Assembly (NCBI GenBank): GCA_015521565.1
Contig: WANX01000002.1
Coordinates: 7,308-71,307, forward strand
DNA: 64,000 nucleotides
Direction of reading: 5' to 3'
Source of the DNA: Candidatus Hydrothermarchaeota archaeon
Lineage (GTDB): Archaea; Hydrothermarchaeota; Hydrothermarchaeia; Hydrothermarchaeales; BMS3B
Shown here: positions 8,259-53,655 of the stretch, in pieces
How the letters are laid out: every line of letters begins with the position of its first letter
Numbering within the stretch: the first letter of the stretch is position 1
Notes under the pieces: model-generated
Seen by the model: only the letters and a program-made list of their open reading frames with translations
Database searches by the model: none
Told to the model about the DNA's origin: nothing
Position numbers and translations under genes: made by a program

Positions 8259-8346
8259 GTCTATGCCTCCCGTGTAATATATTCTATGCAATTAATAAAT
8301 AACCTCCTGGCATGGTGGCGCAGGCCGGACTGCAGGGAACCTGTCC

Positions 8347-8356
8347 AAATAACATT
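8347..8356. repeat. Left copy of a 10-bp perfect direct repeat (aaataacatt) flanking the AT-rich island
   Basis: An identical decamer recurs at 10445-10454. The two copies bracket the low-GC two-gene insertion. Confidence 0.5.
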
Positions 8357-8502
8357 TTCTCACATCAAGTGGCTGTGATATAGCCTGAAAGTATAGGCGA
8401 AGAAGCTGTTTTGTTTAAGAACCGCTTCCTACCAGAGCTTTTCGTTTTCCTTTTCAGGCTCTTTCTGAAGTTGATGTTAAAGTTATTCAGAGCAATACAG
8501 AA

Positions 8503-8513
8503 GGTTTAAATAA
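8503..8513 (+). promoter_or_regulatory. TATA-box-like element (gtttaaataa) about 30 bp upstream of the ATPase start codon
   Basis: Archaeal promoter geometry (TATA at about -27/-30) relative to the ATG at 8538. Confidence 0.4.
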
Positions 8514-8537
8514 CAATGCTTTAGAAATAAGATTTTG

Positions 8538-9932
8538 ATGATAAGAGCTGACCTTAAGAAAGTTGTTATCAAGAACTTCAAAAGTCTTCACGACTGCGAA
8601 ATCGATATTAGAAAGCTAAATGTGGTAGTCGGTGCAAACGCATCCGGAAAATCAAATTTAGTGGAAGTATTTAAACTCTTGAAAAAAATCTATGCCGAAA
8701 AGGAAATTAATCCATTTTTTGAATGGTGGGGATACAATAACGTCGTATGGCAAAGAAAAGAAGAACTGCCCATAACAATCGGACTACTTTTTGAAATAGA
8801 AGGATATGAGGTTTATTTTGAAACTACATTTACCGGTATTGGAGGAAAATTTCAAATTTTGAGAGAACTCCTAGATATTAAAGGTTATCTGAAAATATTA
8901 AAAGAAGGTGAATGGTTAACAGTCAAGCATAATCCTGATTTTATAGAAGATATCATCAAAAATTTAAAGAGATATAAAGCAGATTATGGTCTAAAGACAA
9001 AATTAAGAAAGAGAAAAATAAAATTAATGGAAGAAAGAAAGATAAAGGTAGATTTTGATATAAAACTTTTAGACATACTCAGATTACCGATTTGGGTGGG
9101 CGTTGGATATAACCTTATTGATAGGGAGACTAATAAAAAGTTTATATTCTCGTATATTTTTATCCCCACTACTACATCGATTAATTATAAAAAATTTAAA
9201 GAAGAATTTGAAAGAGTTGCAATATTATGTCCACGAATAACCATAAAAAAGCCACGTTTCCGACCAGAAAGTTCACTTTATAGAATTGCTTCGAATAAAA
9301 TATTTTCTATTTTAACAGGAATGTCAATTTTACTGCCGCTTAATGTTCGCTTAATGAAAGACCCTCAAACTCTTAGAAAAGAGGAAACACTTAAAGAAGA
9401 TGGGAGTAATATTGCCAGCGTATTCCACAGTATTTATATCAATAAAGGAAAGATTCCTGAAGAGATCTACCATCCTCTATCAATGCTCTTCCCTGATATA
9501 GAAGTACGTCCACATATCACGGACGATGGAAGAGTCATGATTAAAATATGGGAAAAAGGTTTAGAGCTTCTACCTCCAAATATTTCTGATGGATTCTATA
9601 AAGTTTTGACGATTCTTACTGCCATCTACCTTAAACCGTCTTTATTAATAATAGATGAGATAGAAAATTCTCTACATCCAGAAACATTAGAACTTATTTT
9701 AGACACTATAAGGAAAAGCGATGTCAATGCAATAATAACAACTCATTCTCCTGTTGTTGTTGATATGGTCGATCTTAGCGAGTTAATTCTTATAGAAAAA
9801 GATTCAGAAGGGTCTAAATTCAGACGTATAAAAGACCCTGATAAAATAAAGGAGTTTTTAAGAGAAAAAGGCATAACGTTTAGTGAAGGATGGTTATATG
9901 GGGATCTATTTGGGACTGAGGAAAAAGTATGA
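8538..9932 (+). CDS. AAA_21/OLD-family ABC-type ATPase, the ATPase component of a predicted defence module
   Basis: N-terminal Walker A (VVGANASGKSN) in a NFKSL...I.I..LNVVVG context typical of SMC/RecF-like ABC ATPases. C-terminal Walker B plus D-loop (LLIIDEIENSLHP) and the AAA_21 hallmark H-loop (IITTHSP). About 30% GC against ~60% in the flanks. The real ATG is at 8538; the ORF caller used the TTG at 8535. Confidence 0.8.
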   Translation: MIRADLKKVVIKNFKSLHDCEIDIRKLNVVVGANASGKSNLVEVFKLLKKIYAEKEINPFFEWWGYNNVVWQRKEELPITIGLLFEIEGYEVYFETTFTGIGGKFQILRELLDIKGYLKILKEGEWLTVKHNPDFIEDIIKNLKRYKADYGLKTKLRKRKIKLMEERKIKVDFDIKLLDILRLPIWVGVGYNLIDRETNKKFIFSYIFIPTTTSINYKKFKEEFERVAILCPRITIKKPRFRPESSLYRIASNKIFSILTGMSILLPLNVRLMKDPQTLRKEETLKEDGSNIASVFHSIYINKGKIPEEIYHPLSMLFPDIEVRPHITDDGRVMIKIWEKGLELLPPNISDGFYKVLTILTAIYLKPSLLIIDEIENSLHPETLELILDTIRKSDVNAIITTHSPVVVDMVDLSELILIEKDSEGSKFRRIKDPDKIKEFLREKGITFSEGWLYGDLFGTEEKV

Positions 9933-10417
9933 AGATAAAAATGATTGTAGAAGATCACTATGGTGGAGAATTTTTAAAGAGGGTAATTAATAGACTTAAA
10001 ATAGATGGAATGGTATCCAGAAATCTTAGTGTTCCAAAACCAAAACATTTACCTGCTTTATGTAATTCAAAACTCACCAGAATTTTGAAAAAATTTGATA
10101 ATACTTGTGATAAAATTTTAGTTTTCTTAGACTCTGATGGCCCACAAAATCTTAATGATAGATACGCAAAAACAGAATGTCATATCCCAAATAATATGTC
10201 AACTCCAGTAGAGATAGTTCTGACAGATTATGAAATTGAAGAGTGGATATGTATCAGTTTAGATTTAAGGTGGTATTTAAAACCTTCAGAAGAACTTAAA
10301 AAGAAATTTGGATATGAAAAAAGCCATCTAATTTCATATAGTGATAAATTAGACTTTGACAGGTTGCTAAAAGACTGTCGCTCCTTCAAGTCTTTCCTTT
10401 CCGCTTTAAAAACATAA
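9929..10417 (+). CDS. Small Toprim-like (DUF4276-like) protein, the predicted nuclease partner of the ATPase
   Basis: Overlaps the ATPase stop (ATGA). Has a conserved acidic strand (KMIVEDHYGGE) and a DxD motif after a hydrophobic strand (ILVFLDSDGP), the minimal Toprim signature found in OLD, GajA and AriB nucleases. Confidence 0.55.
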   Translation: MKIKMIVEDHYGGEFLKRVINRLKIDGMVSRNLSVPKPKHLPALCNSKLTRILKKFDNTCDKILVFLDSDGPQNLNDRYAKTECHIPNNMSTPVEIVLTDYEIEEWICISLDLRWYLKPSEELKKKFGYEKSHLISYSDKLDFDRLLKDCRSFKSFLSALKT

Positions 10418-10444
10418 ATGTACTGTAAATAAGTGGTTGTCGAA

Positions 10445-10454
10445 AAATAACATT
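10445..10454. repeat. Right copy of the 10-bp direct repeat (aaataacatt) flanking the AT-rich island
   Basis: Identical to 8347-8356. Confidence 0.5.
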
Positions 10455-10779
10455 CCGGCTCTAAGCTCTATTCTCAGCCTCACCTGGAAGTTACATTGAG
10501 TGACAACTCCGCATTATGCTTCATGGCAAGCAACAATCGAAGCAACAGGCGTACAAGACCACTTTATTACTGGCAGAGCTACCACTCGAACATCTCTTCC
10601 TTCTCGTGCAAAAGAAGCAGCGGTAAATATATATGAAAGCAGAGATAAGCTTAGACTGCCGACAGAGGCTGAAAAGCGGATTGTGCCTGCACCCGGCGGC
10701 ACTGCTGTTGTGGTCAGACCTGAAGCTCTGGTCAGAGGCTGGCATACGGCAGCAAATACAATTTAGAGGTGAACTTATC

Positions 10780-11487
10780 ATGGAAGCGGTGAGAACGGGC
10801 ATTCCGGGTATGGACAATCTGTTTTCAGCCGGAGGCTTTCCCAGAGGCAACAGCATCCTGCTCATAGGCGGTCCTGGAAGTGGAAAGTCCATCTTCGGTA
10901 TGCAGTACCTATACTCCGGTGCAAGGGAGTATGAAGAGCCGGGGATATACATAACCTTCGAGGAAACCCCCGAGAAGATAAAGAGGAACATGCTCGCCTT
11001 TGGCTGGGACCTGGATGAGCTTGAGAAAGAAGAAAAGCTCATAATAATGGACGCTGTGACCTACCGCATCTCCGGCGATGTGGATGAGGAAACGCTGCGC
11101 TCTGGTCTGGATGTGGACAACCTTATCGCAAATCTTGATGATGCCATCTCTGCAACAGGTGCAGAGCGCGTCGTGATAGACTCCCTCTCGGTAATGGGGC
11201 TCTATGCCCACGATGAGTTTGAGAAGCGCACAAAGCTGCTACGTCTTTCGAATCTGCTGAGCATGCGCAGAGTAACCAGCCTGGTGATAACCGAAGCAAG
11301 GAGTGCTGATATAGGGATAAAGGAGTTTCCCATCGAAACGTTCATGTTTGATGGCGTTATAACCCTTCGCCTGGATACTGAAACGCAGGAAAGGAGGATA
11401 TCAATACGCAAGATGCGTGGCACAAAACATGTCATAGGCTCCTTCAAGTTTGCAATAACCGACCGCGGAATAGAGCTTTCACCGTAG
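10780..11487 (+). CDS. KaiC/RadA-like RecA-superfamily ATPase
   Basis: Walker A LLIGGPGSGKS. Single KaiC-like domain architecture (GIPGMDNLF...YITFEE...). The start is set at MEAVRTG. Confidence 0.75.
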   Translation: MEAVRTGIPGMDNLFSAGGFPRGNSILLIGGPGSGKSIFGMQYLYSGAREYEEPGIYITFEETPEKIKRNMLAFGWDLDELEKEEKLIIMDAVTYRISGDVDEETLRSGLDVDNLIANLDDAISATGAERVVIDSLSVMGLYAHDEFEKRTKLLRLSNLLSMRRVTSLVITEARSADIGIKEFPIETFMFDGVITLRLDTETQERRISIRKMRGTKHVIGSFKFAITDRGIELSP

Positions 11488-16908: not shown

Positions 16909-18669
16909 ATGGGAGAGCAGCTTGAGAAAATATACGATGTGGAGCTCAGGCCCGGGGCGGGTGAGGCTTACGTCTGCAACCTCACCAAGCCGGAATTTGC
17001 AGAGGCCATGAAGACCAACATTCCAAAGGAGCCCCTCCCGGATGACCAGATGGTGGAGGTGGCTCTCAAGCGTCTGGATGAGCTCCGCAAAGAGAGAAAG
17101 AGCATCCAGCTGTATCTGGACATATGTGTGCGCTGTGGCGCCTGCATGAAGCAGTGCCATTACTTTATTGGCACCGGCGACCCGAAAAACACGCCCGTGG
17201 GCAGGGCAGAGCTTCTGCGTAAGGTTTACAGGGCGCACTTCACCATAAGCGGCAAGCTCTTCGGCAAGCTGGTGGGTGCCGAGAAGCTCACCCCGGAGAT
17301 TTTGAAGAACGAGTGGTACAAGTACTTCTACCAGTGCTCAGAGTGCAGGCGCTGCTCTGTGTTCTGCCCCTACGGCATAGACCAGGCAGAGATTACCATG
17401 GCTGGCAGGGAAGTGCTCAACAGCGTGGGCCTGGCCACGAAGTACATCACCCAGGTAATTTCGCAGGTCTACAAGCACGGCAACAACCTGGGCATACCAG
17501 AGCCGGCGTTCAAGTACAACTGCCAGTTCCTGGAGGAGGAGATAAAAGAGAGCACGGGTGTTGATGTTAAGATACCCGTGGACAAGGAGAAGGCAGAGAT
17601 ACTCTACCTGCCCCCGAGTGCAGACCTCTTCACCAACACCGACACCATGATAGGCGTCGCCAAGGTGTTCCATGCAGTAGGTGCGGACTGGACGATGAGC
17701 ACCTACGCCAGCGAGGCCGCGAACTTCGGGCTCTTCTTCAGCTACGACGACCTCAAGGCGATTAACCTGCGCGTCGTCGAGACAGCCAAGAAGCTGGGGG
17801 CCAAGCTCGTCGTGTTTGGCGAGTGCGGCCACGCGTGGCGTGCTGCCAGGCAGTTCATGGAGGCGATGAATGGACCCCTCCCGTTTAAGTTCATGAACAT
17901 CCTGGAGTACACCGCAGAACAGATACGCAAGGGCAAGCTCAAAATCGACAAATCGAGAAACGACGACGTCGTTGTAACGCTGCACGACCCCTGCAACTAC
18001 GCCAGGGCGGGGGACCTGGTGGAGGAGACTCGCTTTGTGATAAAGTCGGTGTGCAACAACTTCGTGGAGATGGACGAAAGTGTTACCAAAGTTAAAACCT
18101 TCTGCTGCGGTGGCGGCGGAGGCCTGCTCACAGAGGAGATAATGGAGCTCAGGATGAAGGGCGGCCTGCCTCGTGCAACGGCGGTTAAAGAGGTGGTTGA
18201 GGCACATGGCGTCAACTATCTTGCCGCACCCTGTGCTATAGACAAAGCCCAGCTGCCGCTGGTAATGCAGCACTACGAAATACCCGTGCAGGTTGGTGGA
18301 ATCCACGACCTGGTGAGCAAGGCACTTATTCTTGAGGGTCAGGAGGAGTTCGAGGCAAAGAAGAAGGCCGAGGAAGAGGCTGCCAGGGCCGCGGCTGCGG
18401 CTGTGCCGGCGGTCTGCGGACTCTGTGATGCGGAGTTTGCCACCATGGACGAGTGCTGTGAGCATGCGGAGAAGGACCACAAGATATCCAAAGAGCAGTG
18501 CGACATGGTATGCGAGGCCAAAGAGGGAGCAGCCGCCGAGGCTGTGCCGGCGGTCTGCGGACTCTGCGATGCGGAGTTTGCCACCATGGACGAGTGCTGC
18601 GAGCATGCGGAGAAGGACCACAAGATATCCAAAGAGCAGTGCGACATGGTGTGTGAGTCGAAAAAATGA
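16909..18669 (+). CDS. HdrD/DsrK-like iron-sulfur CCG-domain subunit carrying a tandem Cys-rich C-terminal extension
   Basis: Two ferredoxin-like clusters (CVRCGACMKQC and CSECRRCSVFCP) and two CCG domains (HDPCNYA and TFCCGGGGG). The last ~95 aa are two near-identical 47-aa Cys-rich repeats. Confidence 0.75.
   Translation: MGEQLEKIYDVELRPGAGEAYVCNLTKPEFAEAMKTNIPKEPLPDDQMVEVALKRLDELRKERKSIQLYLDICVRCGACMKQCHYFIGTGDPKNTPVGRAELLRKVYRAHFTISGKLFGKLVGAEKLTPEILKNEWYKYFYQCSECRRCSVFCPYGIDQAEITMAGREVLNSVGLATKYITQVISQVYKHGNNLGIPEPAFKYNCQFLEEEIKESTGVDVKIPVDKEKAEILYLPPSADLFTNTDTMIGVAKVFHAVGADWTMSTYASEAANFGLFFSYDDLKAINLRVVETAKKLGAKLVVFGECGHAWRAARQFMEAMNGPLPFKFMNILEYTAEQIRKGKLKIDKSRNDDVVVTLHDPCNYARAGDLVEETRFVIKSVCNNFVEMDESVTKVKTFCCGGGGGLLTEEIMELRMKGGLPRATAVKEVVEAHGVNYLAAPCAIDKAQLPLVMQHYEIPVQVGGIHDLVSKALILEGQEEFEAKKKAEEEAARAAAAAVPAVCGLCDAEFATMDECCEHAEKDHKISKEQCDMVCEAKEGAAAEAVPAVCGLCDAEFATMDECCEHAEKDHKISKEQCDMVCESKK
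18400..18666 (+). repeat. 141-bp perfect-period tandem duplication (two copies) inside the 3' end of the hdrD-like gene
   Basis: Copy 1 is 18400-18540 and copy 2 is 18541-18666. Almost all differences between them are synonymous third-position changes. Confidence 0.9.
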
Positions 18670-49311: not shown

Positions 49312-52300
49312 CTATTGCTCCGGCCTCCTTCCCAGTAGCAGCAGCGGCAGCACCGCTATGAGTGCCACAAAGGTTGGACCGCAGATACCCTTTTTCTCAG
49401 CGGGCTCAGAGGGCTGTGGTTCTTCCGGAGCTGGCTCCGGCTTCTTTTCGGGCTCTGGCACCTTCTTTACAGGTGGAGAGGTCTCCGGCTGTTCCTGCGG
49501 GGAAACCGGTGCGGGAGGTTTCTCCTCAGGCGCCGGGGCAGCTGATGGCGGAGGGCTCGCCACCTCCTCCACCTGGGCGAATATATCCCTGAAACCCGAG
49601 TTCTCCCTGCCGGTGATGGCAAACCAGCTGAAGCCCGGTGTTTCCGCGGTGTAGTAGAAGGTTCCGTTCTCCACCTTTTCAGGTCTGGTGGTCAGCTTCT
49701 CCCATTTCTTGTTTTCATTCAGGCGGTACATTGCCACCGTTGACGGGTCGATGTCGTTGTCCCTGAGCCAGGCCTCCTTCACCAGGAAGGTTATACTGGC
49801 TTTCTTTACATAGGTGCCGGGCTTGCTGTACTTTATCAGTAAGTAACTGTAGAGTCTGCCTGGTGCGGGATCGAAAATCACCCAGTCCGGCTTCTTTGAG
49901 TAGGTGCTGACTCTGACCTTTGCATAGTGCTGGTCCCGGGCGGCGAAGACTTCTATACTGGAGATGTGGGGCACATACTTCCGGTTGAAAACTGCCACAT
50001 AGCTTTCGCCTGCCTTTATTCTGGGAATCTCCACGGTATTCTTCGGCGCACCGCCGCCACCGCCGCCTGCTGAAGGTGGCGGGCTGGCTGTGGTAAAGCT
50101 GAATTCAGCGCTCTGGTTGGAGTGGCCAGCTCTGTCGGTGCTGTTTACCACAAAGTAGTACCTGGTTCCAGAGCTGAGCCCCGTCAGTTTGAGGGTGTGG
50201 GCTGTTTTTGGAGTGGTGTTGCCGACGCTCCAGGAGTACTTCCCGGAGGAGGTGCCGTAGAGCACAAGGCTGCCAGCAGGTTCGTCTGTCTGCCAGCTGA
50301 CTACGGCACTGCTCTGAGTAACAGAGGACACCTTGACGCCGGTTATCACCGGCGGGGATATGTCAACACCCATGGGGGCAAAAACGCTGAAGCGGGTGAG
50401 GTTGGAGTGCACATACCTGCCGGCAGTGTTAACCGCGTTTGTACCCGGGACTGGCTCCCAGCCGGTGCCGTTGTACCGCCATATGCGCAGGGTGCTCTCA
50501 TTTACACCGGCACTGCTGATGTCCGAGGGGGTGTAGCTGAAGTTGATGTACACCCAGGCGCTGCTGGTGTTGGTGATGTTCAGATACTTGCCCAGGCTCC
50601 TGTAGCCCGCAGGCTCCAGGGCCGGCGATGAGGTGGCGTTTATAATTATATCCCCGGTGAAGCTGAGGTTGAGCTTCACCCCTCCAATTGATGTCTCTGC
50701 CACGCGTGTATTCGGGGCGAAGGATGCCCTGAAGTCAATGCTGTTCTGAATCAGTGCAACCCGGTTCAGCACATTGCTGTCGGAGCTGTCTATCAGGACC
50801 CCGCTGCCGGAGTGTTTTACTGTGACGTTCTGCAGCGTATTGCTCTTGCTACTGGAACTGATTCTGATACCACCGCCCGGGTTTGCCTCGATGGTGGACC
50901 TGACAAGCCTGTTGTTGCTGGAGGAGAGGAAGTATGCTCCGATGTAGCTCGAGCTTATTCTGCTGTCTGAGATGTTGTTGCCGCCGGAGTAGTTGAGGTA
51001 GATGCCCATCTTGGAGTTGCTGCTGGCGGTGACGTTGATTATGATGTTGTTCTCTGACCTGTGCAGCAGGACTCCGTAGTCCCCGTTGGAGCCGGCGTGG
51101 TTGTCCTCAATTGTGGAAAAGTTGGAATTTTCCAGATGTATTCCGCTCCTGTTGTTGGCGGTGGCGTTGTTACCCTTTACGGAGTTCAGCAGGGAGCTGT
51201 AGATGTAGACCCCGCTGTAGTTGTTCCCTGCGATGCGGTTGGTGTAAATCTGGTTCTGATTGGAGGCGTCCAGCACAATACCATGCCTGTAGCTCCCCGA
51301 AACTGTGTTCCCGGAAAGGGTGACGTTGGTGGAGCGCACAATCTCCACACCGTACTTTCTGCTGGAGCTTATTGTGTTTCCGCTGATAAGATTGTCTCTG
51401 GACCTGTCCATGAGGATACCCCACAAATTGCCGCTCAGGGTGTTGTGGCTGATGTTGGTGAGGTTGGACGACTGCAGGTATATGCCCTGGTTTAAGCTGG
51501 TGCTTATAACATTCCCGGAAAGCAGGTTGCTGTTCGATGACTCCAGAATTACGCCATAGGTGTTGGAGGTAAGGTTGTTGCCGCTGAGGGTGTTGCTCAC
51601 ACTGCTCATGTTCAGATGAACACCCGCCAGGGTGTTGTTTACCAGAGTGTTGTAGCGTATCTGGTTGCCTCTGGAGGTCTCAAGCAGAATGCCGGAGACG
51701 TTTATAGTGTCCTTTATGATGTTGTCATCCACTGTTGTGTCGTTCACATTCTGGAGATAGACGCCTGTTGAGTTGCTCCCGGTTATGGTATTGTTCAGAA
51801 CTGAGCTCAGGTTGGAGTTGACAGACCATATACCGAATTCGTTCTCTGAAAGGGTGTTGTTGAAAATCCTGGCGTAGCTGCTGGCGTCGATGACAATGCC
51901 GTCGTAGCTTCTGTTGACCGTGTTGTTCTCTATGCTGGTGCTGTTGGACCTGAGTGAAATTATGGCGTATCGGGAGGCGAGGGTTATCTGATTCCCGGCA
52001 ACCTCCACGCTGTTCGACCTCTCGACAAATATGCCATCTGTGCCTGAGCTTATCCGGTTCATAAGCGCCTGCGTCGAGCTGGAGCGCAGGAGGTAGATGC
52101 CGATGTTTGCGGAGTTTATTATTGTGTTGCCCTTTACAACACTGCCTATGGCATCGGTGAGGTCAATGCCATCGTCCAGATTATCCCTGAGGGTGTTGTA
52201 CCTAACCACATTGTTGAGACCGCCTATGGCTATGCCGTCCTGTGAATTGCCAGATGCAAAGTTGTTCTCCACGGTGTTGGCATCAGAGCTCACCAGGAAG

Positions 52301-53655
52301 ATTCCTGTGCCGGTGTTCTGGCTGGCATTATTGCCTCTGATTGAGTTGACCTTTGAGTTCTGAATGTATATCCCTGTTGTACTGGAAACGATGGTGGTGT
52401 TCTCTACCAGACTGCTGTTTACCTGGTTGAAACGAATTCCGGAGTTCCCCCAGTCAGTAAGTCTGAGATTTATCACCTTCACATTCACCAGCGTCGTGGT
52501 GGCGTTGTTCACATAGACTCCGGAGGTCCCCAGGGTGTCCACACCGTCTATTACCATGCCCGCGCCGTCAAAGACCACATTGCTCGAGGTTATGTTTATG
52601 CACGCCGTGGTGGTGCTGTTTATTATGCTGGTGTTCAGCACATAATAGCCGGGAGAGCTCAGTGCAGCGCAGGTGCTTATGTTGTTTACAGGTGGAGGTG
52701 TGGACAGGGGCAGGTAGTCGATGTTGGTGGAGTTGATTGTGTAGGTGGAGTCACAGATTCCGTCGTGGTCTGCATCGGTGCAGCTGTCACTGTGGCCGGT
52801 GCCGCTGGGAGAGCCCCAGTAGTTGCCACCGATGAAAGGCCCCCCAACTATGTTACCGCCTGCCCTCAGGCTTGTGTTCCACTTATTTGTGGACACAGTC
52901 TGATAGAAGTGGATGTTGGCGGTGTTGTTGAATTTGTTGTTGTAAATCAGGTTGTCAGCGGGAGCTAAAACGAAGTATATCCCATAACTGCCGCTGTTTT
53001 CTATGACATTACCTGAGATTATGTTACCGCTGGCCGTGGAACGGTATATATAAATTCCGTTTATTTTTGAATTGAGAATCCGGTTGTTTATTATCGTATT
53101 ATTTCTACCGGAAATATAAATTCCATGGTTGTTGCCCTCTATGAGGTTGTCGCTCAGATTGTTTCTGCTTCCGGTGATAATACCGTAACTGTTGAAAGAG
53201 GCGTTGCTGCCGGTAATTGTGTTGTCCTGACCATCAACCTGAATCCCCGAATAGATGTTGGAGCTTGCCGTTACCCCGGCAACCGCTCCTTTTCCGGCTG
53301 TGAAGTAAATTCCTCCGTACCAGTCGGTGAGGGTGACGTTCTTAACTGTAATGTTGGTGAAGGCGACTCCTGAAATCACGGGCACATAGATGCCGTAGGT
53401 GTAGGAGCTGTTGTCCACACCGTCTATTACCCTGCCCGCGCCGTCGAAGACCACATTGCTCGAGCTTATGTTTATGCACACCTTGGCGGTGCTGTTTATT
53501 ATGCTGGTGTTCAGCACATAATAGCCGGGAGAGCTTATAACTGTGCATGAGTTCACAGCAGTTGCGGCATGCACCGCCGGCAGCAGAGTTAACACAAGCA
53601 TAAGCCCCAGAACCCGCAATAAAGACCCACTCCTTGTGATGGATGCCATCGCCAT
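49312..53655 (-). CDS. Giant secreted parallel-beta-helix surface glycoprotein (1447 aa) with Fn3 domain, Pro/Thr-rich stalk and PGF-CTERM-like anchor
   Basis: Signal peptide. Dozens of about 22-aa right-handed beta-helix (NosD/pectate-lyase-like) repeats with N-x-S/T sequons. Fn3 domain (VVSWQTDEPAGS...YYFVVNSTD). PEPAPEEP stalk. C-terminus GPTFVALIAVLPLLLLGRRPEQ. Confidence 0.8.
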   Translation of the reverse strand: MAMASITRSGSLLRVLGLMLVLTLLPAVHAATAVNSCTVISSPGYYVLNTSIINSTAKVCINISSSNVVFDGAGRVIDGVDNSSYTYGIYVPVISGVAFTNITVKNVTLTDWYGGIYFTAGKGAVAGVTASSNIYSGIQVDGQDNTITGSNASFNSYGIITGSRNNLSDNLIEGNNHGIYISGRNNTIINNRILNSKINGIYIYRSTASGNIISGNVIENSGSYGIYFVLAPADNLIYNNKFNNTANIHFYQTVSTNKWNTSLRAGGNIVGGPFIGGNYWGSPSGTGHSDSCTDADHDGICDSTYTINSTNIDYLPLSTPPPVNNISTCAALSSPGYYVLNTSIINSTTTACINITSSNVVFDGAGMVIDGVDTLGTSGVYVNNATTTLVNVKVINLRLTDWGNSGIRFNQVNSSLVENTTIVSSTTGIYIQNSKVNSIRGNNASQNTGTGIFLVSSDANTVENNFASGNSQDGIAIGGLNNVVRYNTLRDNLDDGIDLTDAIGSVVKGNTIINSANIGIYLLRSSSTQALMNRISSGTDGIFVERSNSVEVAGNQITLASRYAIISLRSNSTSIENNTVNRSYDGIVIDASSYARIFNNTLSENEFGIWSVNSNLSSVLNNTITGSNSTGVYLQNVNDTTVDDNIIKDTINVSGILLETSRGNQIRYNTLVNNTLAGVHLNMSSVSNTLSGNNLTSNTYGVILESSNSNLLSGNVISTSLNQGIYLQSSNLTNISHNTLSGNLWGILMDRSRDNLISGNTISSSRKYGVEIVRSTNVTLSGNTVSGSYRHGIVLDASNQNQIYTNRIAGNNYSGVYIYSSLLNSVKGNNATANNRSGIHLENSNFSTIEDNHAGSNGDYGVLLHRSENNIIINVTASSNSKMGIYLNYSGGNNISDSRISSSYIGAYFLSSSNNRLVRSTIEANPGGGIRISSSSKSNTLQNVTVKHSGSGVLIDSSDSNVLNRVALIQNSIDFRASFAPNTRVAETSIGGVKLNLSFTGDIIINATSSPALEPAGYRSLGKYLNITNTSSAWVYINFSYTPSDISSAGVNESTLRIWRYNGTGWEPVPGTNAVNTAGRYVHSNLTRFSVFAPMGVDISPPVITGVKVSSVTQSSAVVSWQTDEPAGSLVLYGTSSGKYSWSVGNTTPKTAHTLKLTGLSSGTRYYFVVNSTDRAGHSNQSAEFSFTTASPPPSAGGGGGGAPKNTVEIPRIKAGESYVAVFNRKYVPHISSIEVFAARDQHYAKVRVSTYSKKPDWVIFDPAPGRLYSYLLIKYSKPGTYVKKASITFLVKEAWLRDNDIDPSTVAMYRLNENKKWEKLTTRPEKVENGTFYYTAETPGFSWFAITGRENSGFRDIFAQVEEVASPPPSAAPAPEEKPPAPVSPQEQPETSPPVKKVPEPEKKPEPAPEEPQPSEPAEKKGICGPTFVALIAVLPLLLLGRRPEQ

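Follow-up and report, generated by a model that had tools for sequence, protein, structure and literature searches.

OLD and Gabija are related nucleases that combine an ATPase with a Toprim domain. The systems closest to the locus described here place the two parts in separate proteins: in PARIS, AriA and AriB form an ATPase-Toprim complex, and Mad3-Mad4 of the MADS system have been listed among the systems that pair an ABC ATPase with a TOPRIM protein (PMC11464382). MADS defence depends on both mad3 and mad4, and mad5, the methyltransferase gene of that system, tolerates deletion only when mad2 or mad3 is removed as well (10.1101/2023.03.30.534895). HEC-01, a candidate system in PADLOC, likewise consists of an ABC ATPase and a separate TOPRIM protein, and was found embedded in Hma systems (bioRxiv 10.1101/2024.01.29.577857). 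As to the small subunits, DUF4276 has been assigned to the Toprim superfamily, and the Mad4, DUF4276 and RloB families keep the Toprim catalytic residues (PMC12065111). Here we analyse two overlapping genes in a 64,000-nucleotide stretch of contig WANX01000002.1 (hereafter, the window) from Candidatus Hydrothermarchaeota archaeon, and we conclude that the pair is very probably a HEC-01-type ATPase and Toprim cassette that was acquired horizontally.

That the host is an archaeon is borne out by its RadA, which has 75-78% identity to proteins named from Hydrothermarchaeaceae and Hydrothermarchaeales MAGs, and 86% to one from an unclassified "Euryarchaeota" MAG. The two genes lie on the + strand in an AT-rich islet: positions 8501-10500 have a GC content of 0.31-0.33, whereas that of the adjoining DNA is 0.50-0.58 and that of the remainder of the window 0.56. 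The first gene (8538-9932) encodes a 464-aa ABC ATPase of the AAA_21/AAA_15 family that resembles HEC-01A, and the second (9929-10417) a 162-aa protein of predicted Toprim fold from a divergent DUF4276/Mad4/HEC-01B-like family. Gene 1 starts at the ATG at 8538; an in-frame TTG is present just upstream, at 8535, but homologues begin at the ATG instead. The ATG of gene 2 (9929-9931) overlaps the TGA of gene 1 (9930-9932), which yields an ATGA stop/start overlap (9929-9932, + strand) suited to translational coupling. Because both have many homologues, and because long open reading frames (ORFs) are improbable in DNA of 31% GC, these ORFs are well beyond chance. A previous sequence-only reading of this DNA had given the two ORFs and their overlap at exactly these coordinates and had recognized the AT-rich islet, and our measurements agree with it on each of these counts.

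The same reading had quoted three motifs from gene 1, all of which are present and invariant in an alignment of 24 homologues (coordinates on the + strand). Walker A, GANASGKSN, read directly from the sequence, occupies aa 32-40 (8631-8657), with G32, N34, A35, S36, G37, K38 and N40 invariant; the Walker B motif and D-loop, LLIIDEIENSLHP, lie at aa 369-381 (9642-9680), with D373, E374, E376, N377, S378, L379 and P381 invariant; and the H-loop TTHSP lies at aa 401-405 (9738-9752), where T401, T402, H403, S404 and P405 are all invariant. An ABC signature-like SDG (aa 350-352; 9585-9593) shows the same constancy at S350, D351 and G352. Matches to Pfam (AAA_21, 1e-24; AAA_15, 6e-16), PADLOC and NCBIfam hidden Markov models (HMMs) uphold the original placement of this protein among the AAA_21/OLD-type ATPases. 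In PADLOC, six HEC-01A models rank highest (5e-36 to 2e-30), and one of them, PDLC04176, spans aa 6-454, so gene 1 qualifies as a HEC-01A-type ABC ATPase; ranked below them are PDC-M07A, AriA (1e-25), AbiLi (1e-25), mad3 (9e-25), Old and GajA, the last two (1e-16) being much weaker than HEC-01A. The best NCBIfam match is MADS3 (2e-27), at 96 bits against a cutoff of 420 bits. By these sequence comparisons gene 1 is an OLD/AriA-type ABC ATPase of the AAA_21/AAA_15 kind with intact motifs, and it is computationally predicted to be ATP-competent.

It had been recognized that the ATPase might instead group with the housekeeping SMC, RecF or RecN proteins. The RecF, SMC and Rad50 models of NCBIfam align only to the P-loop end of the protein and score far under their cutoffs (RecF, 35 bits against 172). 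The AlphaFold2 (AF2) model of the ATPase, which is of moderate confidence (a pLDDT, or predicted local distance difference test score, of 70.6), contains an ABC head and a beta-rich insert at about aa 79-246, with no long coiled-coil predicted, and its structural neighbours are the heads of Rad50 and SMC. We rejected a housekeeping SMC, RecF, RecN or Rad50 identity, there being no family-level HMM score and no long coiled-coil insertion.

The small protein is more divergent. Its sole Pfam match is to DUF4276 (PF14103; 17.8 bits, E 0.0043) and covers only the C-terminal aa 119-160, and its sole PADLOC matches are weak ones to HEC-01B models (3.3e-5, 22 bits, aa 1-108); searches of Pfam and PADLOC returned no DUF4435 or AriB match at E <= 1, and no AbiLii or RloB match. 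On sequence, it is a remote homologue of DUF4276 and not a model-level member. Its family comprises 44 close relatives and, at E <= 1e-3, 237 cluster representatives among 1.84 billion, nearly all of them 155-180 aa in length. We assembled a broad alignment of 58 diverse representatives and scored the close-family alignment separately. Among the 58 representatives, 25 match mad4, 18 match HEC-01B, 18 match DUF4276 (the best at 1.4e-7) and six match RloB; AbiLii, HEC-04 and the retron ATPase-Toprim models, which are related and belong to the same group, are each matched by a few members, and the remaining matches are scattered, with one or two members each. When the family profile was aligned by hhalign to a bona fide DUF4276 protein, the match had a probability of 87.5% and an E of 3.6e-6, and extended from the DxD strand to the C-terminus.

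This DUF4276 control, a protein of Anabaena plasmid pANACY.05 that matches PF14103 at 3e-13, serves to calibrate the weak scores. In PADLOC it matches HEC-01B models only, at 1e-8 to 7e-6, and its ATPase partner matches HEC-01A at 5e-50. Because the control pair matches HEC-01A and HEC-01B, HEC-01 corresponds to an AAA_21 ATPase with a DUF4276 protein; and, given the scores of the control, weak scores are normal for the small subunit of HEC-01.

The AF2 model of the small protein is very confident (pLDDT 94.5; predicted template modelling score, pTM, 0.90). Its core alternates between beta strands and alpha helices, and a helical tail comes after it. It is a three-layer alpha/beta fold with an acidic residue after beta1 and a DxD after beta3, as in the Toprim superfamily. 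The candidate Toprim catalytic acid, E8-D9 (9950-9955, + strand), comes just after strand beta1 (model strand 2-7), and is invariant in the close family; among the 58 representatives, at least 90% keep D9. The DxD motif, D68-S-D70 (10130-10138, + strand), is at the end of the third core strand (model strand 62-68); D68 is invariant in both the close and the 58-member family, and D70 in the close family. After the fourth strand there is an acidic block, Y101-E-I-E-E-W106 (10229-10246, + strand), which is invariant in the close family, retains E104 without exception and W106 in at least 90% of the 58-member family, and aligns with ELEAW of the Anabaena DUF4276 protein. The closest structural neighbour is 2p62, and a PDB sequence search with the family profile gave chance-level matches only. 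The small protein is, for its modelled fold, a Toprim protein with a retained acidic site, and a putative metal-dependent nuclease. The HMM affinities, the predicted fold and the conserved acidic residues together bear out the earlier description of gene 2 as Toprim-like, and the confident model removes the concern that structure prediction might reveal no Toprim or nuclease fold. The accompanying statement that the protein is half the size of AriB is true of AriB itself, but at 162 aa it is only about 20% shorter than ordinary DUF4276 proteins (192-218 aa).

A Toprim-like fold need not be catalytic. The small protein could be an adaptor of degenerate flavodoxin-like or Toprim-like fold, with no task beyond tethering or regulating the ATPase; activity would in that case reside in the ATPase (e.g., as a DNA-binding clamp). 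We regard this as quite improbable: acidic residues are kept at the exact Toprim catalytic positions down to about 25% identity; the OLD and AriB-like structure matches align 123-144 residues, including the helical C-terminal part, as opposed to about 100 for generic folds; and the specific homology is to Mad4, DUF4276 and RloB, i.e., to families with retained Toprim catalytic residues (PMC12065111).

The two genes travel together. Among the 48 genome loci found via the small protein, the ATPase is immediately upstream in 45, and the other three comprise one contig edge and two partial matches. All 48 loci are archaeal, from Methanoperedens, Thermococci, Nitrosopumilus, Bathyarchaeota, Thermoplasmata, Asgard, Desulfurococcales and Hydrothermarchaeota. 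A reciprocal check took the ATPase homologues of Methanocaldococcus, Pyrococcus and Palaeococcus as its starting points, and the next gene was a member of the small-protein family in all three cases (E <= 1e-53). The two proteins co-vary in their identity to the window copy (r = 0.95 over 41 loci that are phylogenetically non-independent), and relatives keep either the ATGA overlap or a gap of at most 13 nt. Three of the retrieved loci (L001-L003) were not accepted as independent occurrences, being of the same strain and 100% identical, flanks included. By these computed measures, the two genes are translationally coupled, as the sequence-only reading had supposed, and co-inherited, and the possibility that the pair would fail to be co-conserved in other genomes did not materialize.

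About 42 nt upstream of the start are also conserved among loci with unrelated flanks. This interval includes an archaeal TATA-like box, TTTAAATA (8505-8512, + strand), located 26-33 nt upstream of the ATG. From its position, spacing and conservation we infer that TTTAAATA is the cassette's own archaeal promoter, giving rise to a leaderless or near-leaderless bicistronic mRNA. A scan for bacterial sigma-70 promoters and terminators, a model not relevant to an archaeon, yielded no enrichment.

Evidence for horizontal acquisition comes from strains that lack the cassette. In three contigs from other samples or assemblies (L060, L061 and L063), the flanks are 99.8% identical to the window and position 8336 is joined directly to 10617, such that the window contains a strain-polymorphic inserted segment of 2,280 bp (8337-10616; GC 0.33). 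Because sister strains with flanks this similar are without exactly 8337-10616, the acquisition is recent. On either side of the insert are a dehydrogenase gene and a KaiC-like gene, which diverge from the intergenic region that contains it. Its junction shows only GCAG(G) microhomology: we found no target-site duplication longer than 1 nt, terminal inverted repeat, integrase or tRNA at the insertion, and an Rfam scan of the window recovered only tRNA-His, far from the locus. The limits of what moves are given by a contig of Ca. Pyrohabitans (L009), from the same phylum, which has 83% nucleotide identity to the window over 8498-10410 only and unrelated flanks; homology begins 40 nt before the ATG and stops 7 nt before the end of gene 2. 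We take 8498-10410 (+ strand), i.e., the promoter and both genes, to be the core transferable cassette. The empty-site strains and this 83% identical cassette in an unrelated context together confirm horizontal acquisition.

The same mobility is visible in other genomes. The GC content of the module is under that of its flanks in all 36 of 36 loci, by 0.02-0.20 (the difference in the window is 0.25). The Nitrosopumilus copies are all in differing contexts, and contexts are unrelated in Nitrosopumilus, Pyrococcus, Methanocaldococcus, Hydrothermarchaeota and several Methanoperedens.

Several further features of the insertion were apparent. The ends of the insert outside the core cassette (8337-8497, 161 bp, and 10411-10616, 206 bp) have intermediate GC contents of 0.39 and 0.42, and have no homologue in the fetched loci or in the rest of the window; they may be flanks of the donor genome that were carried along. 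A 10-nt direct repeat, AAATAACATT, occurs near both ends (8347-8356 and 10445-10454), and its octamer AAATAACA recurs in the TATA region of the promoter (8508-8515); the repeat may be due to chance in AT-rich DNA or may be a remnant of the insertion mechanism. The cassette lies in a divergent intergenic or promoter region, where its arrival may have altered what stands upstream of each neighbour. The ORF of the KaiC-like gene (10633-11487) is over-extended, as the gene calls of empty-site strains start at the equivalent of 10780; with the corrected start, the protein has 235 aa and matches Pfam KaiC at 1e-69. Finally, in sample ERZ23495399, contig L062 starts at 10620 and a separate 2.4-kb contig, L002, carries the cassette, and this assembly break at the right-hand boundary of the insertion suggests that the sample contains a mixture of strains, some with the insert and some lacking it.

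When placed beside the described systems, the pair has the layout of HEC-01, a two-gene unit in which an ABC ATPase (HEC-01A) is followed by a separate small TOPRIM protein (HEC-01B). It differs in that the small protein has 162 aa, compared with HEC-01B model lengths of 192-218, in that this protein falls in an archaea-only clade, and in that the window copy is solitary, outside any Hma system. With Mad3-Mad4 it shares an AAA_15/21 ABC ATPase paired with a DUF4276-type Toprim protein, but MADS is an eight-gene operon with a methyltransferase and mandatory Mad6-8, whereas the window insert carries two genes only. Membership in MADS was rejected on these grounds, the insert having no methyltransferase or Mad6-8 and the MADS3 score of 96 bits being far from the cutoff of 420. 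A bacterial counterpart, the locus of the Anabaena cylindrica control on plasmid pANACY.05 (L059; NC_020056.1, 8962-15549), carries a large DNA methyltransferase, an AAA_21 ATPase and an annotated DUF4276 protein, with a site-specific integrase nearby; its context resembles MADS or a restriction-modification system, whereas the archaeal pair is solitary.

The resemblance to PARIS lies in the split between an ABC ATPase and a separate Toprim effector, in the matches of gene 1 to AriA models, and in 2p62, the closest structural neighbour of the small protein, which is also matched by a DUF4435 AriB (PMC11381338). AriB, however, is a DUF4435 protein of about 35 kDa, and HEC-01A models outscore AriA models for gene 1; with no DUF4435 or AriB match at E <= 1, membership in PARIS was rejected. 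Class 1 OLD proteins and GajA differ in having the ATPase and Toprim fused in one polypeptide, as opposed to the separate genes of the window. Two ORFs, and no GajB-like helicase among the adjacent genes (a dehydrogenase and a KaiC-like ATPase), led us to set aside class 1 OLD and Gabija. AbiL (AbiLi with AbiLii) and RloB-type systems have the same layout of an ABC ATPase with a small Toprim-like partner, and a few members of the small-protein family match AbiLii and RloB, but the small protein in the window itself has no such match. With a PtuA equivalog score of 45 bits, where the cutoff is 500, and a partner of Toprim-like and not HNH type, Septu and the retron-associated PtuA-PtuB were likewise rejected. 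The layout is already catalogued, in HEC-01 and Mad3-Mad4, and is not a new architecture; the suggestion of the sequence-only reading that it might be an undescribed variant of OLD or PARIS does not hold, and on sequence criteria the pair is most suitably classed with the HEC-01/DUF4276 kind, as a divergent member specific to archaea.

How might such a pair work? The precedents of PARIS, OLD/Gabija and MADS lead us to infer that the ATPase senses a trigger and licenses the Toprim nuclease with ATP. Under this model the ATPase would dimerise through its ABC heads and hold or gate the Toprim subunit, and the beta-rich insert (aa ~79-246) would sense a foreign trigger, either a viral protein or an unusual DNA or RNA. 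ATP binding and hydrolysis would license the Toprim subunit, which would cut nucleic acid by means of E8/D9, D68xD70 and E104, and the cutting would stop the invader or the infected cell. Because no methyltransferase accompanies the pair, self-recognition based on methylation, as in MADS, is unlikely, and PARIS-like trigger sensing or an OLD/Gabija-like scheme is more likely; a trigger-sensing or abortive mode is our best guess. That the pair acts as a nuclease system against mobile elements has, by analogy with these systems, an even chance or slightly better. As a whole, the best explanation of the data, and one that we hold to be reasonably probable, is a self-contained, acquired cassette of the HEC-01 type that encodes an ATP-gated Toprim nuclease directed at mobile elements.

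A number of observations weigh against this explanation. The DUF4276 score of the small protein (17.8 bits) is under the gathering threshold of 30.2 bits, and a Foldseek search of the PDB returned no significant match. The window copy lies between housekeeping genes and outside any defence island, and the other lower-GC patches of the window contain no defence genes. No relatives were found in viral contigs by a search with the close-family alignment, and a tblastn search of plasmids gave no match for the small protein; the ATPase had two distant bacterial matches there, one of them the Anabaena DUF4276 control locus. When a single HEC-01 representative was tested in E. coli, it gave no protection from any phage in the panel (10.1101/2024.01.29.577857). 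In addition, the pair occupies fixed positions in certain archaea. It is found between PTH2 and TruD, in the order AspRS, PTH2, pair, TruD, L7Ae (also next to S28e and L24e), in seven Thermococci loci and in Palaeococcus (L004, L033, L035, L037-L040 and L066), where the copies look like vertical retention at a translation-gene locus. It also occurs directly downstream of UvrB, on the same strand and after a gap of about 80 nt, in 13 species-level Methanoperedens genomes (L011, L012, L014, L015, L017, L018, L020, L021, L024, L025, L026, L032 and L044), an arrangement kept even where the downstream genes differ; this linkage could denote a functional tie to nucleotide-excision repair or simply a conserved insertion site. 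Such stability at the PTH2-TruD and UvrB sites is unusual for defence genes.

Because of the fixed Thermococcus/Palaeococcus site and the linkage to UvrB in Methanoperedens, a repair or housekeeping role is a live rival. The pair would then be an archaeal DNA-repair or RNA-processing complex in which an ATP-driven Toprim nuclease acts on host nucleic acids, and the window copy would be a horizontally spread accessory pair of repair genes. The Rad50 and SMC heads that neighbour the ATPase model would fit such a role, as would the published HEC-01 test without a defence phenotype and the scans without viral or plasmid copies. However, its presence varies between sister strains with 99.8% identical flanks, the module is of lower GC than its surroundings in every one of the 36 loci and occurs in unrelated contexts, and in the Thermococci and Palaeococcus it diverges faster (57-80% identity) than its syntenic neighbours (65-97%). 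Moreover, the HMM affinities are to models of defence systems and not to RecF, SMC or Rad50, and the ATPase has no predicted long coiled-coil. On balance we consider a repair or RNA-processing role unlikely, to a degree that still merits attention.

An additional alternative is that the pair is a selfish addiction cassette, similar to a toxin-antitoxin (TA) module, in which the Toprim nuclease is a toxin restrained by the ATPase, and which persists and spreads because its loss is harmful, without net benefit to the host. Because many defence systems behave like TA modules, this possibility overlaps with abortive-infection defence. In its favour, the pair is a small, autonomous unit of two overlapping and tightly co-evolving genes under a promoter of its own, and it is AT-rich and scattered across genomes. 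In Pfam, AAA_21 carries the label of a putative AbiEii type IV TA toxin domain, several copies have genes of PIN-family toxins in their vicinity, and the lethality of losing the MADS methyltransferase unless mad2 or mad3 is lost too indicates that this type of module can be toxic (10.1101/2023.03.30.534895). Set against this, the cassette is absent from near-identical genomes (an absence that does not tell gain from loss, with composition favouring gain), and its long vertical retention in Thermococcales with conserved catalytic motifs suggests a selected function. We judge the addiction explanation to be improbable, and more so than a role in repair.

With regard to what surrounds individual copies, no more than a few kb separate the pair from PIN-domain toxin-like genes in Thermococcus sp. 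AM4, in a Methanoperedens-like contig and in Methanocaldococcus, and in Pyrococcus kukulkanii the pair has a Cas6 gene close by; these PIN and Cas6 neighbours are at 1847-2648 of L004, 1344-2038 of L007, 3085-3588 of L064 and 7912-8631 of L065. Elsewhere in the window, BLAST of related contigs brought out a tandem repeat of about 135 bp (18388-18522 and 18529-18663; about 93% identity), whose copy number over 18388-18663 appears to differ between strains. The - strand at 49312-53655 encodes a probable surface protein of 1,446 aa, a NosD/right-handed beta-helix protein that also has fn3 and purple-acid-phosphatase-N domains and the gene for which extends into a lower-GC stretch (53-55 kb); it is adjoined by a 282-aa protein with a sub-threshold match to HVO_A0261_N.

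One further possibility goes beyond assignment to HEC-01, namely that the archaea-only clade with its 160-aa Toprim protein forms a distinct system, specialised in function and in some lineages domesticated; its place is fixed among tRNA and ribosome genes (PTH2, TruD, L7Ae) in Thermococcus and Palaeococcus, and it is coupled to UvrB in Methanoperedens. Examples would be an ATP-gated Toprim RNase that targets tRNA or rRNA, in the manner of PARIS or RNase M5, or a UvrB-linked nuclease for DNA damage or foreign DNA. We think this improbable, at about the level of the addiction cassette; if true, the clade would provide a minimal archaeal model for the control of a detached Toprim subunit by an OLD-type ATPase.

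The locus reveals no new kind of system. The immune systems of archaea have been mapped out to a far lesser degree than those of bacteria, and we know of no demonstrated stand-alone function or solved structure for any pair of an ABC ATPase with a DUF4276-type Toprim protein, whether HEC-01 or Mad3-Mad4. What the locus offers is a natural before-and-after view of an insertion, with the minimal transferable unit defined as a promoter and two genes. The compact, confidently modelled Toprim subunit and the availability of thermophilic orthologues (Thermococcus, Pyrococcus, Methanocaldococcus) suit the pair to biochemistry and structural work, and the fixed position in Thermococcus and Palaeococcus, together with the UvrB linkage in Methanoperedens, could serve to separate an immune role from one in repair.

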